DNA of 64,000 nt, taken from assembly GCF_003334335.1 (NCBI RefSeq), contig NZ_QOWQ01000013.1; one strand, written 5' to 3'. This document shows positions 2,817 through 8,635 of this stretch, in pieces. A model generated the notes under the pieces. That model did not search any database. It saw only the letters and a program-made list of their open reading frames with translations, and was not told the origin of the DNA. The DNA is from Escherichia coli (GTDB lineage Bacteria; Pseudomonadota; Gammaproteobacteria; Enterobacterales; Enterobacteriaceae). The position numbers and the translations under genes are program-made. Within the stretch, counting starts at the first letter, position 1. The number at the start of each line of letters is the position of its first letter.

Positions 2817-4037
2817 ATGAAATACCACTCAGAACCTCTGGTTCCCCATAAATCTGCCCTGATGCAAATGCCCGCAAATCTCCTTGCCGAAGATGTCTGT
2901 TTACCTGCCGCGATCATTAAAAAGCAGGCCCTGGAGAACAACATTACGTGGATGCAACGCTACGCTGACGCGCGCGGCGTTTCACTGGCACCGCACGGTA
3001 AAACCACCATGACGCCGTGGATTTTTCAGGCGCAGCAGGCGGCTGGTGCCTGGGCAATAGGTGTCGGTAGCGCATGGCAGGCTGGTGCGGCAATGGCGAG
3101 CGGTATTCAGCGAGTGCTGATGGTTAACCAGCTGGTCGGCAAGGCGAATATGCAGTTGATTGCCCAGTTGCAACAACATTACCCGACGGTCGATTTTATC
3201 TGCTGTATCGACAGCATTGAGAACGCCCGCGCTTTGTCTGCCTTTTTTGCCAGTCAGCAACAGACACTGAACGTGATGATTGAACTGGGTGTTCCCGGCG
3301 GGCGCTGTGGTTGCCGCTCAACGGATGCCGCACTGGCACTGGCTAAACAGGCAGCCCAATTACCGGGGTTACGCCTGCGGGGGCTTGAGTTATATGAAGG
3401 CGTTTTACACGGTGACGATCCACAACCGCAGGTAGAAGCTCTGCTGCGGGATGCCGCACAACTGGCCTGTGATATGGCAAATCTGGTTGATGGCGAGTTT
3501 ATTCTCACCGGAGCAGGCACGGTCTGGTATGACGTGGTGTGCAATATCTGGCTGGCGGCAGAAAAGCCTGATAACTGCCGCATTGTTATTCGCCCTGGCT
3601 GCTACATCACTCACGACACCGGGATCTACGACGCGGCACAACAACAGTTGCTTGCCCGTGATCCTGTGGCCTGCGATCTGGCAGGCGATCTCACATCTGC
3701 GCTGGAACTGGTCGCCATGGTGCAATCGGTGCCGGAAGCTGATCGTGCGGTGGTAAATTTTGGTAAGCGTGATTGCGCCTTCGACGCCGGACTGCCGCAA
3801 CCAGTCGCCCACTACCGCAACGGCAAATCACTGGCATTTGATCCACAGGCGATTCGCAGTACAGGTATTATGGATCAGCACTGCATGTTGCAACTGTCAG
3901 CTAATAGCGACGTGCAAGTGGGGGATATTCTGGTGTTTGGCACATCGCATCCGTGCCTGACCTTCGACAAATGGAAAACGTTGTTATTGACTGATGACGA
4001 CTACAACGTACTGGCAGAATTAGACACTCTCTTCTAA
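2817..4037 (+). CDS. PLP-dependent alanine-racemase-fold enzyme (DSD1 / D-serine dehydratase-like or D-threonine aldolase-like)
   Basis: 406-aa ORF with putative PLP lysine in APHGKT near N-terminus; divergent from the D-aminoacylase gene; followed by hairpin terminator. Confidence 0.7.
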   Translation: MKYHSEPLVPHKSALMQMPANLLAEDVCLPAAIIKKQALENNITWMQRYADARGVSLAPHGKTTMTPWIFQAQQAAGAWAIGVGSAWQAGAAMASGIQRVLMVNQLVGKANMQLIAQLQQHYPTVDFICCIDSIENARALSAFFASQQQTLNVMIELGVPGGRCGCRSTDAALALAKQAAQLPGLRLRGLELYEGVLHGDDPQPQVEALLRDAAQLACDMANLVDGEFILTGAGTVWYDVVCNIWLAAEKPDNCRIVIRPGCYITHDTGIYDAAQQQLLARDPVACDLAGDLTSALELVAMVQSVPEADRAVVNFGKRDCAFDAGLPQPVAHYRNGKSLAFDPQAIRSTGIMDQHCMLQLSANSDVQVGDILVFGTSHPCLTFDKWKTLLLTDDDYNVLAELDTLF

Positions 4038-4042
4038 GAACG

Positions 4043-4076
4043 CCCCTTCGGTTAATTATCGAAGGGGCATTTTTAT
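4043..4076 (+). terminator. Rho-independent terminator after the DSD1-like gene
   Basis: GC stem ccccttcg / cgaagggg followed by T-run cattttta. Confidence 0.6.
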
Positions 4077-4304
4077 TGTGATCTCAATCACATATCCACC
4101 CGACGAATAATTCTTGCCCAACCGCTCACCGCCATTCCTGACCGCTTACATCCCTAAAATAACCACTCAGTTATTTACCTTACTTTACGCGCGCGTAACT
4201 CTGGCAACATCACTGCAGGATAGCGGTCAATTTACCTCCTCAAACGCAACGCAAACCTAGAACGGCTTCGGCCAACTATTAATCAATACATGCCAGGTTT
4301 TACT

Positions 4305-6455
4305 ATGGATACTAAAAAGATATTCAAGCACATACCCTGGGTGATTCTCGGAATCATCGGTGCATTCTGCCTCGCGGTAGTTGCATTACGTCGGGGGGAG
4401 CACGTCAGTGCCCTGTGGATCGTGGTCGCCTCTGTGTCGGTGTATCTGGTGGCTTATCGCTACTACAGTCTGTACATCGCCCAGAAGGTGATGAAACTCG
4501 ACCCCACGCGCGCGACGCCTGCGGTTATTAACAACGACGGTCTGAACTACGTTCCGACCAACCGTTACGTGTTGTTTGGTCACCACTTCGCCGCTATCGC
4601 CGGTGCTGGTCCGCTGGTTGGTCCGGTTCTCGCCGCGCAGATGGGCTACCTGCCTGGCACGCTGTGGCTGCTGGCGGGGGTAGTGCTGGCCGGTGCAGTA
4701 CAGGACTTTATGGTACTGTTTATCTCCTCTCGCCGTAACGGCGCATCTCTCGGTGAGATGATCAAAGAAGAGATGGGACCAGTACCGGGGACTATCGCGC
4801 TGTTTGGCTGTTTCTTAATCATGATCATCATCCTTGCCGTCCTGGCGCTGATTGTGGTTAAAGCCCTGGCCGAAAGTCCGTGGGGTGTCTTCACCGTTTG
4901 CTCAACCGTACCGATTGCGCTGTTTATGGGTATCTACATGCGCTTTATTCGTCCGGGGCGTGTGGGTGAAGTCTCTGTCATTGGTATCGTGCTGCTGGTT
5001 GCCTCTATCTACTTCGGTGGCGTGATTGCTCACGATCCGTACTGGGGTCCGGCACTGACCTTTAAAGACACCACCATTACCTTCGCGCTGATTGGCTATG
5101 CGTTTGTTTCCGCACTGCTGCCAGTGTGGCTGATCCTCGCACCGCGCGACTATCTGGCAACCTTCCTGAAAATCGGCGTTATCGTCGGCCTGGCGCTGGG
5201 TATCGTGGTGTTGAACCCGGAACTGAAAATGCCTGCGATGACCCAGTACATTGACGGTACTGGCCCGCTGTGGAAAGGCGCTCTGTTCCCGTTCCTGTTC
5301 ATCACCATCGCCTGTGGTGCGGTATCTGGCTTCCACGCGCTGATCTCTTCCGGCACGACACCGAAACTGCTGGCTAACGAAACCGACGCGCGTTTCATTG
5401 GCTACGGCGCAATGCTGATGGAGTCCTTCGTGGCGATTATGGCGCTGGTTGCTGCGTCCATCATCGAACCGGGTCTTTACTTCGCGATGAATACCCCGCC
5501 TGCTGGCCTTGGCATCACCATGCCTAACCTGCATGAAATGGGTGGCGAGAACGCGCCGATCATCATGGCGCAGCTGAAAGACGTTACCGCACACGCGGCA
5601 GCGACCGTCAGCTCCTGGGGCTTCGTGATTTCGCCAGAGCAGATCCTGCAAACAGCGAAAGATATTGGTGAGCCTTCTGTCCTGAACCGTGCAGGTGGTG
5701 CGCCGACGCTGGCGGTAGGTATCGCTCACGTGTTCCACAAAGTGCTGCCGATGGCTGACATGGGCTTCTGGTATCACTTCGGTATTCTGTTCGAAGCCCT
5801 GTTCATCCTGACCGCGCTGGATGCGGGTACCCGTTCTGGCCGCTTTATGCTGCAAGACCTGCTGGGTAACTTCATCCCGTTCCTGAAAAAAACCGACTCT
5901 CTGGTTGCCGGTATCATCGGTACTGCGGGCTGTGTGGGTCTGTGGGGCTACCTGCTGTATCAGGGCGTGGTCGATCCGCTGGGCGGCGTTAAGAGCCTGT
6001 GGCCGCTGTTCGGTATCTCCAACCAGATGCTGGCAGCCGTAGCGCTGGTACTGGGCACCGTTGTGCTGATTAAGATGAAGCGCACCCAATACATCTGGGT
6101 AACTGTTGTTCCGGCTGTATGGCTGCTTATCTGCACCACCTGGGCGCTGGGCCTGAAACTGTTCAGCACCAACCCGCAGATGGAAGGCTTCTTCTACATG
6201 GCAAGCCAGTACAAAGAGAAGATTGCTAACGGTACTGACCTGACGGCACAGCAGATTGCCAACATGAACCACATCGTTGTGAACAACTACACCAACGCGG
6301 GCCTGAGTATTCTGTTCCTGATTGTGGTGTACAGCATCATCTTCTACGGTTTCAAAACCTGGCTGAAGGTGCGTAACAGCGACAAACGTACTGACAAAGA
6401 AACTCCGTACGTTCCAATCCCGGAAGGCGGCGTGAAGATCTCTTCGCACCACTAA
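4305..6455 (+). CDS. btsT: Pyruvate/H+ symporter BtsT (CstA family; YjiY)
   Basis: ORF 4290..6455; recalled K-12 N-terminus MDTKKIFKHIPWVILG gives start 4305 (716 aa); polytopic membrane protein. Confidence 0.93.
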   Translation: MDTKKIFKHIPWVILGIIGAFCLAVVALRRGEHVSALWIVVASVSVYLVAYRYYSLYIAQKVMKLDPTRATPAVINNDGLNYVPTNRYVLFGHHFAAIAGAGPLVGPVLAAQMGYLPGTLWLLAGVVLAGAVQDFMVLFISSRRNGASLGEMIKEEMGPVPGTIALFGCFLIMIIILAVLALIVVKALAESPWGVFTVCSTVPIALFMGIYMRFIRPGRVGEVSVIGIVLLVASIYFGGVIAHDPYWGPALTFKDTTITFALIGYAFVSALLPVWLILAPRDYLATFLKIGVIVGLALGIVVLNPELKMPAMTQYIDGTGPLWKGALFPFLFITIACGAVSGFHALISSGTTPKLLANETDARFIGYGAMLMESFVAIMALVAASIIEPGLYFAMNTPPAGLGITMPNLHEMGGENAPIIMAQLKDVTAHAAATVSSWGFVISPEQILQTAKDIGEPSVLNRAGGAPTLAVGIAHVFHKVLPMADMGFWYHFGILFEALFILTALDAGTRSGRFMLQDLLGNFIPFLKKTDSLVAGIIGTAGCVGLWGYLLYQGVVDPLGGVKSLWPLFGISNQMLAAVALVLGTVVLIKMKRTQYIWVTVVPAVWLLICTTWALGLKLFSTNPQMEGFFYMASQYKEKIANGTDLTAQQIANMNHIVVNNYTNAGLSILFLIVVYSIIFYGFKTWLKVRNSDKRTDKETPYVPIPEGGVKISSHH

Positions 6456-6464
6456 CCGTGTTTA

Positions 6465-6491
6465 GCCCCGCTTCGGCGGGGCTTTGTTCTT
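6465..6491 (+). terminator. Rho-independent terminator after btsT
   Basis: Stem gccccgc / gcggggc with ttcg loop, followed by tttgttctt. Confidence 0.65.
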
Positions 6492-6504
6492 ATCAGAGTG
6501 AACT

Positions 6505-6708
6505 ATGTTTGGTAACTTAGGACAGGCAAAAAAATATCTCGGCCAGGCGGCGAAGATGTTGATTGGCATTCCAGACTACGACAACTACGTCGAGCATATG
6601 AAGACCAACCATCCCGACAAGCCGTACATGAGCTATGAAGAATTCTTCCGCGAACGCCAGAACGCGCGCTACGGCGGCGATGGTAAAGGCGGTATGCGCT
6701 GTTGTTAA
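6505..6708 (+). CDS. yjiX: DUF466 small protein YjiX (CstA-associated)
   Basis: 67-aa ORF immediately downstream of btsT; sequence [33 protein letters not shown]... matches YjiX family. Confidence 0.9.
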
Positions 6709-6718
6709 TGGAGAGAGC

Positions 6719-7675
6719 ATGAACCCGATTGCAGTTACCCTACTCACCGGTTTTTTAGGCGCGGGCAAAACCACCCTGCTGCGCCATATTCTTAATGAAC
6801 AGCACGGCTACAAAATTGCCGTGATTGAAAACGAATTCGGCGAAGTCTCCGTTGATGATCAACTGATTGGCGATCGCGCCACGCAGATCAAAACGCTGAC
6901 CAACGGCTGCATCTGTTGTTCGCGCTCCAACGAGCTGGAGGACGCGCTACTCGACCTGCTGGATAATCTCGACAAGGGCAATATTCAGTTCGACCGTCTG
7001 GTCATTGAATGCACAGGCATGGCCGATCCCGGCCCGATTATTCAGACCTTTTTCTCCCATGAGATTTTATGCCAGCGTTACCTGCTGGACGGCGTGATTG
7101 CGCTGGTGGATGCGGTACATGCCGATGAGCAGATGAACCAGTTCACCATCGCCCAGTCACAGGTTGGCTACGCCGACCGTATTCTGCTGACTAAAACCGA
7201 CGTCGCAGGTGAAGCAGAAAAACTGCGCGAACGCCTGGCACGCATCAACGCCCGCGCACCGGTCTACACCGTCACCCACGGCGACATCGACCTGGGCCTG
7301 CTGTTCAACACCAACGGTTTTATGCTGGAAGAAAACGTCATCAGCACCAAACCGCGTTTCCACTTTATCGCGGATAAACAAAACGATATTTCGTCGATTG
7401 TGGTGGAACTGGATTACCCGGTAGATATCAGCGAAGTTTCCCGCGTGATGGAAAACCTGCTGCTGGAATCGGCAGATAAACTGCTGCGTTACAAAGGGAT
7501 GCTGTGGATTGACGGCGAACCTAACCGCCTGCTGTTCCAGGGCGTCCAGCGCCTCTACAGCGCCGACTGGGACAGGCCGTGGGGCGATGAAAAACCGCAT
7601 AGCACGATGGTGTTTATCGGGATTCAGCTGCCGGAGGAAGAGATTCGGGCTGCGTTTGCGGGGTTGAGGAAGTAA
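6719..7675 (+). CDS. yjiA: CobW/HypB-family GTPase, putative metal chaperone YjiA
   Basis: ORF 6635..7675; P-loop GFLGAGKTTLL; internal start MNPIAVTLL at 6719 gives 318 aa. Confidence 0.92.
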   Translation: MNPIAVTLLTGFLGAGKTTLLRHILNEQHGYKIAVIENEFGEVSVDDQLIGDRATQIKTLTNGCICCSRSNELEDALLDLLDNLDKGNIQFDRLVIECTGMADPGPIIQTFFSHEILCQRYLLDGVIALVDAVHADEQMNQFTIAQSQVGYADRILLTKTDVAGEAEKLRERLARINARAPVYTVTHGDIDLGLLFNTNGFMLEENVISTKPRFHFIADKQNDISSIVVELDYPVDISEVSRVMENLLLESADKLLRYKGMLWIDGEPNRLLFQGVQRLYSADWDRPWGDEKPHSTMVFIGIQLPEEEIRAAFAGLRK

Positions 7676-7720: not shown

Positions 7721-8635
7721 TCACTCAAAATAGTCCATATCCAGTTTCGGCACCTTCAACAAACGTGAAGAAACCCCTACTTCGTTTTCGATCATTAAGT
7801 GCACCAGGCGTTCCCCATCAACCAACACCATACCCTCAACGGATTGGGCAAAGTCACGCGCCTGAGAAGTAAATCCAGAAGTGGTAATAAACACCCCACG
7901 TTTCGCTTTTTGCCCAGCCAGTGCGCCGTAAAATGCCTGTAATTCTGGCCTGCCTACAGTATTCTGCCAACGTTTTGCCTGAACATAAACTTTCTCCAGG
8001 CCAAGTTTATCAAGCGATATCACACCATCGATGCCACCATCTCCAGTACCGCCAACACGCTGCAAATCATCACGGTGGCCGCCATACCCCAGGCGATGCA
8101 AAACATCCAGAACAATGACTTCAAAGCGCGAAGGAGAAACCTGCAATAAGTTTTCCAGAGCCTCATCAGCCACCGCATCACGAAGCTCTTTTAGCGCCTG
8201 ATCTAACCGATCGTCCGGGCTGCTCTTTGCAAGTTCTTCATGATCGGGAGAGTCGGCTTTCGGATCTAAATCGACGGCATCCGGCCGTGACTTAAGTTTG
8301 ACATTCACAAAATCGAAGGCCAGATGGTTCGTCTCCTGCTCCGTCATTGGCTGGGGATGAGACGCAACCCAGTCAAAACCCGCAGGAGTCAGGCACCATT
8401 TGCCACGCGACAAACTTTGCGACAACCCGGCACGTTTTAAACGGTCATGCGCCCAGCCTGCACGATTTTTATAAACAAGTTGTCCGCTGGTAATGACTTT
8501 CGCTCGCTGGCTGTCATCCAGTCCTAATGCATCCGCGGCAGCCTCATGAACATCACGCGCGGCTGCACCTTCCGGTTTTGTCGCCAGATAACGCAGAACA
8601 GGTTCAATAAATTTGTCATAGGTTGGAACCGTCAT
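7721..8635 (-). CDS. mrr: Mrr modification-dependent (Type IV) restriction endonuclease
   Basis: 304-aa ORF; recognised as Mrr by sequence and by position next to hsdR. Confidence 0.93.
   Translation of the reverse strand: MTVPTYDKFIEPVLRYLATKPEGAAARDVHEAAADALGLDDSQRAKVITSGQLVYKNRAGWAHDRLKRAGLSQSLSRGKWCLTPAGFDWVASHPQPMTEQETNHLAFDFVNVKLKSRPDAVDLDPKADSPDHEELAKSSPDDRLDQALKELRDAVADEALENLLQVSPSRFEVIVLDVLHRLGYGGHRDDLQRVGGTGDGGIDGVISLDKLGLEKVYVQAKRWQNTVGRPELQAFYGALAGQKAKRGVFITTSGFTSQARDFAQSVEGMVLVDGERLVHLMIENEVGVSSRLLKVPKLDMDYFE

Follow-up and report, generated by a model that had tools for sequence, protein, structure and literature searches.

The window, a 64,000-nt stretch of Escherichia coli chromosomal DNA, was matched in 5426 out of 5426 complete E. 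coli genomes, and the RefSeq annotation beneath its match comprised btsT, yjiX, yjiA and mrr. The region is the known E. coli btsT-yjiX-yjiA cluster; its features are collected in Table 1. A 3.8-kb query matched a RefSeq-annotated record at 99.2 %, and BtsT was 100 % identical to the protein that RefSeq annotates as btsT product in strain E7-1N7. The positions and common orientation that an earlier sequence-only reading had given for btsT and yjiX were borne out by this annotation, with a correction to the btsT start: it lies at 4305 (MDTKK..., 716 aa) and not at the upstream in-frame ATG at 4290. In other genera, the homologues likewise start at MDTKK/MNKNK.

Table 1. Features of the btsT-yjiX-yjiA region (positions refer to the window)
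Feature	Position	Strand	Description or basis
Three direct repeats ACCGCTCA-12 nt-ACCGCTTA-13 nt-ACCACTCA	4121..4169	+	136-184 nt 5' of btsT start
btsT (formerly yjiY)	4305..6455	+	716-aa CstA-family pyruvate/H+ symporter; RefSeq annotation
Stem-loop AGCCCCGC-TTCG-GCGGGGCT and T-tract TTTGTTCTT	6464..6492	+	terminator scan, RNA fold
yjiX	6505..6708	+	67-aa DUF466/PF04328 protein, predicted soluble, ending Arg-Cys-Cys
Shine-Dalgarno GGAGAG of yjiA	6710..6715	+	directly 3' of yjiX stop; from sequence
yjiA	6719..7675	+	318-aa COG0523-family G3E GTPase; RefSeq annotation

Compared with the NCBIfam model PRK15015 ('pyruvate/proton symporter CstA'), BtsT scored 1012 bits over residues 6-712, which falls short of the CstA equivalog cut-off (1188 bits), as a paralogue is expected to; it shared 61 % identity with K-12 CstA. 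Profile and orthology assign it to the CstA transporter family (TC 2.A.114), BtsT subtype. Its pyruvate/H+ symport activity in E. coli is known from the literature (PMC5847655, PMC5936718).

YjiX matched Pfam family PF04328 (Sel_put/DUF466) over model positions 2-61 of 61 (E = 3.3e-27, 94.8 bits), and profile match, motif and gene position all identified it as a DUF466 member. The DUF466 core is 60-70 aa long and displays the motif G-x-P-D-Y-D-x-Y-V-x-H...H-P...F-F-R-E-R-Q-x-A-R-Y followed by a C-terminal Cys-Cys. YjiX carries the family-conserved residues G21, P23, Y25, Y28, H31, H36, P37, F47, F48, R51, R55, Y56, C66 and C67, among which G21, Y25, Y28, H31, H36, F47, C66 and C67 are conserved family-wide. 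C66 and C67 formed the extreme C-terminus in all 80 genome loci, and about 81 of the 50 %-identity representatives listed ended in Cys-Cys, which is the majority of the representatives devoid of an obvious frameshift or truncation; in the 70-sequence DUF466 and BtsT-linker-YjiX alignments the apparent invariance of this pair is inflated, as rows were chosen for their CC ending. Both H31 and H36 were present in 51 out of 51 aligned rows.

The AF2 model of YjiX (mean pLDDT 84.5) displayed helices at residues 2-19, 25-35 and 44-56 and a low-confidence Gly-rich tail. These helices were amphipathic or polar, and the YjiX sequence had no hydrophobic stretch of at least 15 residues. YjiX thus lacks the transmembrane helix of membrane-embedded small subunits of the YjcH, MctB or AcrZ type, and supplementary file 2 of PMC11188072 classes it as nonTM. 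A PDB search returned no relative of BtsT or YjiX, and Foldseek of the YjiX model against PDB gave nothing significant (best E = 4.6, TM <=0.32). Chains of the PRDM9 zinc finger appeared in a phmmer search of PDB (E = 4e-5) and were rejected as a repeat-summed coincidence devoid of homology, each stretch having an i-Evalue above 100; the match pairs the repeated linker 'H-x-x-T-H-x-x-E-K-P-Y' with a 13-residue stretch of YjiX. Although mrr/hsd genes lie nearby, neither YjiX nor YjiA was assigned to a defence system by PADLOC.

The third member of the cluster, yjiA, was absent from the sequence-only reading. Its product matched NCBIfam NF008578 over residues 1-318 of 318 with 682.5 bits, above the equivalog cut-off of 361. 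Ten nucleotides separate yjiX from yjiA in the window, compared with 8-13 nt in most loci of Enterobacteriaceae. A yjiA gene directly 3' of the DUF466 gene was found in 47 out of 51 BtsT-type enterobacterial loci and 14 out of 16 Pseudomonas loci, and none of the 13 CstA/YbdD-type loci, nor any distant locus with downstream DNA, had a COG0523 gene.

The hairpin between btsT and yjiX consists of an 8-bp stem (6464-6483) with seven G-C pairs and a UUCG loop, followed by TTTGTTCTT (six T in nine positions). When 6440-6530 was folded as RNA, the minimum-free-energy structure contained this hairpin (-29.2 kcal/mol for the whole stretch, z = -2.2), which has the sequence features of a Rho-independent terminator, i.e. 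a G+C-rich stem-loop and a U-rich tract. The sequence-only reading had yjiX begin 50 bp after this hairpin, which was wrong: the ATG at 6505 lies 49 nt past the stop codon of btsT (6453-6455), 21 nt past the end of the stem and 12 nt past the T-tract. Terminator-like sites as a class were not enriched in the region (four found, 3.9 expected), and Rfam gave only sub-threshold chance matches for the hairpin. Compensatory changes were observed at three out of eight pairs, with 93.8 % of cells paired, across 12 genus-level sequences that were picked because each had a hairpin. The spacer type of the window occurred in 4204 out of 5426 E. coli genomes; others, e.g. strain 536, have a spacer of 117 nt that contains a REP element and another hairpin.

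Upstream of btsT, the repeat pattern search returned two overlapping matches where none was expected (100 shuffles). The direct repeats probably serve as binding sites of BtsR (YehT), a response regulator of the LytTR type, a naming that depends on the published YehT motif ACC[G/A]CT[C/T]A. The + strand of the 49-nt btsT-yjiX spacer was devoid of sigma-70-like promoters. In Salmonella Typhi, btsT, yjiX and yjiA are all BtsS/BtsR-dependent with graded polarity, expression dropping in yehU/yehT mutants by 6.5 (btsT), 4.0 (yjiX orthologue) and 2.3 (yjiA) log2 units (PMC3875573). As indirect evidence, such graded changes in the btsSR mutants fit partial read-through. The hairpin may be either a weak (leaky) intrinsic terminator or a 3'-end stabiliser.

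The recurrence of the pairing with CstA-family transporters, proposed in the sequence-only reading, was confirmed: the gene immediately 5' of the DUF466 gene, in the same orientation, was of the CstA family in 79 out of 79 testable loci. This co-occurrence search used a 20-sequence DUF466 alignment as query, and the 80 loci kept came from Enterobacterales and Pseudomonas, so that the phylogenetic breadth of the pairing rests on eight single look-ups of more distant DUF466 genes. Five of these eight (L083, L084, L085, L087 and L091/92) again had a co-oriented CstA-family gene as their immediate upstream neighbour. The DUF466 genes of L086 and L088/89 were apart from any CstA gene, so that DUF466 can occur where the transporter does not. 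Pseudomonas loci had 1-27 nt between transporter and DUF466 gene and Enterobacterales loci 47-319 nt, compared with 49 nt here. The nearest neighbour of a small protein belonged to the same transporter class in 77 out of 77 cases, and the pairwise-identity matrices of small proteins and transporters correlated with r = 0.77. Two CstA-DUF466 'fusion' proteins (P0263 and P0185) turned out to be decayed loci with internal deletions and not Rosetta-stone fusions.

Among the closest known systems is CstA-YbdD of E. coli K-12 (b0598-b4512), a constitutive pyruvate uptake cassette paralogous to BtsT-YjiX, with the same gene order and strand. Transporters are 61 % and small proteins 73 % identical, both YbdD and YjiX end in Arg-Cys-Cys, and from their sequences the two pairs look like one duplicated cassette. 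They differ in control (CRP/Fis for cstA, BtsSR for btsT), in the cstA-ybdD spacer, which is 182 nt long and contains REP-like palindromes but no terminator-like site, and in the gene that follows, this being yjiA behind yjiX but hcxA, on the opposite strand and not of COG0523, behind ybdD. YbdD is genetically required for uptake through CstA (PMC5847655), a requirement that concerns YbdD itself, and a complex of YbdD with CstA was predicted (PMC11188072).

Members of the same Pfam family are the KCU-star selenoproteins (NCBIfam NF033934), DUF466 proteins of Campylobacter and Helicobacter that end in Lys-Cys-Sec, align with YjiX residues 15-67 and are also encoded beside transporters (bioRxiv 10.1101/2022.07.06.499078). 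YjiX itself was rejected as a KCU-star selenoprotein and is a Cys homologue: it scored 61.9 bits, below the cut-off of 85, and its gene ends in TGT TGT TAA with no in-frame UGA. Small proteins on which secondary transporters depend or by which they are modulated (YjcH-ActP, MctB-MctC, PftA-PftB; also AcrZ-AcrB, MgtS-MgtA and KdpF) come, like YjiX, from a short ORF next to the transporter gene and co-transcribed with it. To our knowledge, all these partners are membrane proteins with a hydrophobic helix. Unlike these, YjiX is nonTM (PMC11188072) and predicted to form a soluble three-helix domain. The analogy to transporter-adjacent small proteins was also drawn by Hwang et al. (PMC5847655).

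The sequence-only reading considered the role of the small protein still unclear, which was only half right. The literature search returned no yjiX deletion, pull-down or physical test of a BtsT-YjiX complex, but genetics of the paralogue and a predicted complex were already published. Hwang et al. (2018) reported that CstA-dependent uptake of pyruvate requires YbdD: deletion of ybdD mimics that of cstA, with raised 3-fluoropyruvate resistance and pyruvate uptake at 20 % (cstA: 13 %) of the wild type, and the ybdD cstA double mutant displays no additive effect; the authors cautioned that the ybdD phenotype could be indirect (PMC5847655). Further genetics of the family are given in bioRxiv 10.1101/072470. 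In the CstA paper of the Jung laboratory, cstA alone complements a triple transporter mutant and ybdD is never mentioned; that mutant had presumably kept its chromosomal copies of ybdD and yjiX.

In a 2024 AlphaFold-Multimer screen, which paired small proteins of E. coli 536 with the products of neighbouring genes, YjiX-BtsT obtained an ipTM+pTM of 0.849 and a pLDDT of 87.8 (PMC11188072, supplementary file 9). BtsT was the best partner tested, YjiX-YjiA reaching 0.531 and the YjiX homodimer 0.159, and a predicted CstA-YbdD complex is shown in the same work. An AF2 model of a BtsT-linker-YjiX fusion, computed here from a shallow unpaired alignment and without PAE output, reached a pLDDT of 74.7 and a pTM of 0.76. 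Its DUF466 rows were anchored by the BtsT tail and linker. Block means of YjiX were 58, 57, 70, 83, 82, 57 and 43 in this fusion versus 77, 87, 92, 97, 94, 78 and 57 alone, i.e. confidence in the YjiX part was lower in the fusion. The model thus lent no support to docking and, with neither PAE nor contacts in its output, does not speak against it either.

Taken as a whole, the evidence favours, with a probability of roughly 65 %, a reading in which btsT is driven by BtsSR and CRP, the hairpin behind it is leaky, and YjiX is an accessory or regulatory cytoplasmic subunit of BtsT. In this scheme btsT, which encodes the inducible high-affinity pyruvate/H+ symporter, is transcribed from a BtsS/BtsR- and CRP-dependent promoter. 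That the review literature names btsT as the sole BtsSR target (PMC5936718) counts against the scheme as a whole. The stable UUCG hairpin with its poor U-tract would act as a partial terminator, halting part of the transcripts after btsT while the remaining ones would read through to yjiX and yjiA, and the transporter message is proposed to be in excess over those of yjiX and yjiA as a result. YjiX would be a small soluble cytoplasmic protein of three helices with a flexible Gly-rich tail ending in Cys-Cys, which most likely docks on the cytoplasmic face of BtsT and may be needed for full pyruvate uptake. By analogy, it would serve BtsT as its paralogue YbdD appears to serve CstA; direct contact between YjiX and BtsT is suggested by the published AlphaFold-Multimer score.

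A rather unlikely reading, which refines the preferred one and does not exclude it, sees in YjiX a switch on the transporter that senses redox state or metal. The Cys-Cys pair, possibly with His31 and His36, would gate BtsT through a vicinal disulfide or a bound metal, and loading or resetting of this site would fall to YjiA, a COG0523 GTPase that has a CxCC motif. Cys/Sec exchange typically flags a redox-active residue. Mercuric reductase MerA and mammalian thioredoxin reductase have a mobile C-terminal tail that bears a dithiol or selenylsulfide, with Cys/Sec exchange among homologues, and these tails pass Hg(II) or electrons to the flavin active site of the same enzyme. This is a resemblance only, YjiX having no catalytic domain and no relation to either in sequence or fold. 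The switch is supported by the constancy of the terminal cysteines and of both histidines, by the predicted flexibility of the tail, by the absence of both His residues from the orphan DUF466 of L086, which has no CstA neighbour, and by the cstA-DUF466-COG0523 triad kept from E. coli to Pseudomonas. The sub-threshold match of YjiX to the KCU-star model and the Lys-Cys-Sec ending of its Campylobacter relatives (bioRxiv 10.1101/2022.07.06.499078) point in the same direction. Against it, the choice of CC-ending rows exaggerates the constancy of the cysteines, COG0523 is missing from the CstA/YbdD-type loci and from the distant loci with downstream DNA, deletion of yjiA leaves sensitivity to 14 chelators unchanged (PMC10763504), and YjiX-YjiA scored only 0.53 with AlphaFold-Multimer (PMC11188072).

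This last score, compared with 0.85 for YjiX-BtsT, also argues against YjiX partnering mainly YjiA, as its client, metal donor or regulator, with its place after btsT reflecting shared regulation only. The short gap, in which the Shine-Dalgarno sequence abuts the yjiX stop and suggests translational coupling, and the frequency of the triad in BtsT-type and Pseudomonas loci are in its favour. It is made very unlikely by the DUF466 genes that accompany a CstA-family gene without COG0523 (13/13 CstA-type loci, three Erwinia species, L083 and L091/92), by the lack of any case of DUF466 with COG0523 but without CstA among the loci examined, and by the ybdD phenotype, which occurs without an adjacent COG0523 gene (PMC5847655). 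Highly improbable is a role of YjiX in expression or biogenesis, e.g. as a small nucleic-acid-binding regulator of the btsT message or as a factor that helps the 18-helix membrane protein to insert or to stay stable. Wong et al. noted that structural modelling of the orthologue from Salmonella suggested a nucleic-acid-binding domain (PMC3875573), YjiX is small, basic and helical, and genetics of ybdD alone cannot tell activity from abundance (PMC5847655). The top Foldseek hits include DNA-binding domains, but none of them was significant; a C-terminal Cys-Cys or Cys-Sec is foreign to DNA-binding helix bundles, and AlphaFold-Multimer predicts direct binding of YjiX to BtsT (PMC11188072).

The pairing of btsT and yjiX is real, strongly conserved and already described, and its publication through genetics, cofitness and structure prediction makes it an ordinary finding. 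The genes btsT, yjiX and yjiA are annotated in every E. coli genome, and the finding as such matters little. Of wider consequence would be a distinctly unlikely extension, in which the invariant C-terminal Cys-Cys of DUF466 proteins (Cys-Sec in Campylobacter), carried on a flexible tail, would form together with His31 and His36 a redox- or metal-operated latch that inserts into the cytoplasmic side of CstA-family transporters and is loaded or reset by YjiA in the BtsT and Pseudomonas lineages. If true, this latch would be the first client for YjiA, a long-orphaned metallochaperone-like GTPase, and would couple the uptake of pyruvate to the cell's oxidative or metal status.

A 3.8-kb query around btsT-yjiX matched 5426 of 5426 complete E. 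coli genomes (top match 99.2 % identical), and the window is of E. coli chromosomal origin. RefSeq features beneath the top match were 'amino acid deaminase', btsT, yjiX, yjiA and mrr. The small DUF466 gene that the sequence-only reading had placed downstream of btsT, in the same orientation, was confirmed as yjiX (Pfam PF04328, Sel_put/DUF466, E = 3.3e-27); its product also matched the NCBIfam 'KCU-star selenoprotein' model, under the cut-off. The btsT start proposed at 4290 had to be moved to 4305, the former being an upstream in-frame ATG used by neither the annotation nor homologues. BtsT scored 1012 bits against the NCBIfam CstA model, which is under the CstA equivalog cut-off, as a paralogue should be. 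YjiA exceeded the cut-off of its own equivalog (682 versus 361 bits). This third gene of the cluster was absent from the sequence-only reading.

Features of the btsT cluster and its upstream region (window coordinates)
Feature	Coordinates	Strand	Description and evidence
Terminator-like hairpin, strong	4042-4068	+	11 pairs, then ATTTTTATT; directly 3' of amino-acid deaminase gene (2817-4037)
Three direct repeats	4121-4169	+	ACCGCTCA / ACCGCTTA / ACCACTCA; pattern search, consensus ACC[G/A]CT[C/T]A
btsT	4305-6455	+	716 aa; RefSeq annotation
btsT stop codon	6453-6455	+	
Stem-loop	6464-6483	+	AGCCCCGC-UUCG-GCGGGGCU, then UUUGUUCUU; terminator scan and RNA fold
yjiX	6505-6708	+	67 aa; RefSeq annotation, Pfam PF04328
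yjiA	6719-7675	+	318 aa, COG0523 GTPase; RefSeq annotation, NCBIfam equivalog

The pairing of CstA-family and DUF466 genes is real and strongly non-random. A scan of the genome collection with a DUF466 alignment gave 582 confirmed matches, of which 80 loci, from Enterobacterales and Pseudomonas, were listed. All 79 listed loci with enough upstream DNA displayed a CstA-family gene directly upstream on the same strand, so that the recurrence and co-conservation proposed earlier were borne out; all 80 small proteins ended in Cys-Cys-stop. A YjiA homologue lay directly downstream of DUF466 in 47 of 51 BtsT-type and 14 of 16 Pseudomonas loci and in none of the 13 of CstA/YbdD type among those listed. 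Two lineages thus have a conserved triad, running cstA-type gene, DUF466, COG0523 all the way from E. coli to Pseudomonas, and the third has a pair. Small-protein grouping coincided with transporter class in 77 of 77 cases and the pairwise-identity matrices of both partners were correlated (r = 0.77), which fits a cassette that was duplicated long ago as one piece and whose partners have not been exchanged since.

Individual look-ups of eight DUF466 proteins from farther afield gave five with CstA upstream, one ambiguous case and two orphans with no CstA gene nearby. One orphan (L086:5001-5198), devoid of both conserved histidines, adjoined DUF302 and DoxX genes; the other (L088:1714-1971; L089:674-931) followed a RidA (Ribonuc_L-PSP) gene and preceded a LysR regulator. 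Two metagenome proteins, P0263 (L093:1342-1965) and P0185, joined a CstA fragment to mid-DUF466 by in-frame internal deletion and were rejected as functional fusions, representing decayed cassettes. The database 'proteins' P0133, P0140, P0143 and P0206 were really frameshifted yjiX-yjiA read-throughs. In Pseudomonas sp. BN102 (L079:3923-6121) the extended cstA-type frame overran the DUF466 start and contained a stop codon, which may come from a frameshift, mark a pseudogene or have been produced by the ORF extension itself.

Given the positions of the btsT stop codon and the stem, the yjiX ATG lies 49 nt past the former and 21 nt past the latter; the 50 bp once counted from the hairpin really runs from the stop codon. 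The + strand of this spacer yielded no sigma-70-like promoter, and terminator-like sites as a class were not enriched in the region (four found, 3.9 expected). Only 10 nt, with a GGAGAG Shine-Dalgarno, separate the yjiX stop from yjiA. The hairpin directly 3' of btsT was also kept in Citrobacter, Enterobacter, Cedecea, Erwinia, Rahnella and Rouxiella, where three of its eight pairs had changed in a compensatory manner and 93.8 % of alignment cells were paired, counts biased by an alignment set picked for having a hairpin. Other genera displayed different hairpins or REP-like palindromes, and Pseudomonas spacers were 1-27 nt long without hairpin. The spacer was polymorphic even within E. coli: the 49-nt type with UUCG hairpin (6456-6504) occurred in 4204 of 5426 genomes, and E. 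coli 536 (L094:33537-33653) carried 117 nt that included a REP element, and the stem-loop directly before yjiX was another one there (AGCCCGG-ACCTT-CCGGGCT). These differences among genera, in Pseudomonas and within E. coli show the exact hairpin to be dispensable. The K-12 cstA-ybdD spacer (L001:3501-3682), in contrast to the 49-nt hairpin spacer, was 182 nt long with REP-like palindromes, and a simple scan found no terminator-like or promoter-like site in it. Deletion of the sensor gene yehU or the regulator gene yehT (btsS/btsR) in S. Typhi lowered btsT, the yjiX orthologue and yjiA by 6.5, 4.0 and 2.3 log2 units (PMC3875573), a gradation that a leaky terminator within one operon would give.

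Upstream, the hairpin after the deaminase gene implies that btsT has its own transcription start region. The direct repeats, spaced by 12-13 nt and located 136-184 nt upstream of btsT (none expected by chance), presumably are boxes for the LytTR regulator BtsR (YehT). This strain displayed amino-acid deaminase, N-acyl-D-amino-acid deacylase and RidA genes upstream of btsT (2817-4037, + strand, and upstream of it; L002:1-3038), tsr occupying that position in E. coli 536. On the other side, mrr (7721-8635) and hsdR (from 8769) belong to the adjoining 'immigration control' region. The differing upstream genes thus place the cluster at a variable junction beside mrr/hsd.

YjiX displayed no hydrophobic segment. 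Its AF2 model (70 homologues, mean pLDDT 84.5) contained helices 2-19, 25-35 and 44-56 and a Gly-rich, low-confidence C-terminal tail bearing Cys-Cys. Neither sequence nor fold search found a solved relative of YjiX, and none was found for BtsT. Residues G21, Y25, Y28, H31, H36, F47, C66 and C67 were invariant or nearly so family-wide, the figure for C66/C67 being inflated by rows chosen for a CC ending; about 81 of the unselected representatives listed ended in Cys-Cys, the remainder being mostly frameshifted or truncated. An AF2 model of a BtsT-YjiX fusion with a 15-residue linker (78 CstA-family and 50 DUF466 rows) gave pLDDT 74.7 and pTM 0.76, its YjiX part being of lower confidence than YjiX modelled alone (output without PAE). 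'The Cryptic Bacterial Microproteome' (2024) displayed an AlphaFold-Multimer CstA-YbdD complex and, testing E. coli 536 YjiX against its neighbours, scored it at 0.849 with WP_011579346.1 (BtsT), 0.531 with WP_001298065.1 (YjiA) and 0.159 with itself (PMC11188072), values that the fusion model neither strengthens nor weakens.

The pairing is an already described system, not a new one; prior work includes Price et al. Deletion of ybdD copied cstA deletion in 3-fluoropyruvate resistance, with uptake at 20 % versus 13 % of wild type and no additivity (Hwang et al. 2018, PMC5847655). Salmonella work already took 'CstA-YbdD' as the pyruvate transporter; the Jung-lab CstA paper nowhere mentioned ybdD, and no paper deleting yjiX or showing a physical complex was found in the literature consulted. 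The earlier remark that the role of the small protein is unclear is outdated as to purpose and still fair as to mechanism.

YbdD and YjiX end in Arg-Cys-Cys and Campylobacter relatives in Lys-Cys-Sec (Haft 2022 preprint, bioRxiv 10.1101/2022.07.06.499078). Such Cys/Sec exchange within DUF466 and the conserved COG0523 neighbour point to a redox or metal switch built from the Cys-Cys tail, His31 and His36 and serviced by YjiA. We consider this refinement of the subunit reading given below unlikely, and the version in which YjiA would be the obligatory loader more doubtful still. COG0523 is missing from CstA-type and distant loci, yjiA deletion had no chelator phenotype (PMC10763504) and the YjiX-YjiA multimer score was low, all of which speak against the switch. 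Roles centred on YjiA, or in expression or biogenesis, also appeared less likely than a role at the transporter. With a probability of roughly 0.65, YjiX is a putative soluble, cytoplasmic BtsT-binding subunit. The BtsSR/CRP-controlled promoter would drive btsT, read-through of the putative leaky terminator would yield yjiX expression, and YjiX, predicted by the published multimer score to bind BtsT, would by analogy with YbdD be needed for, or tune, pyruvate uptake.
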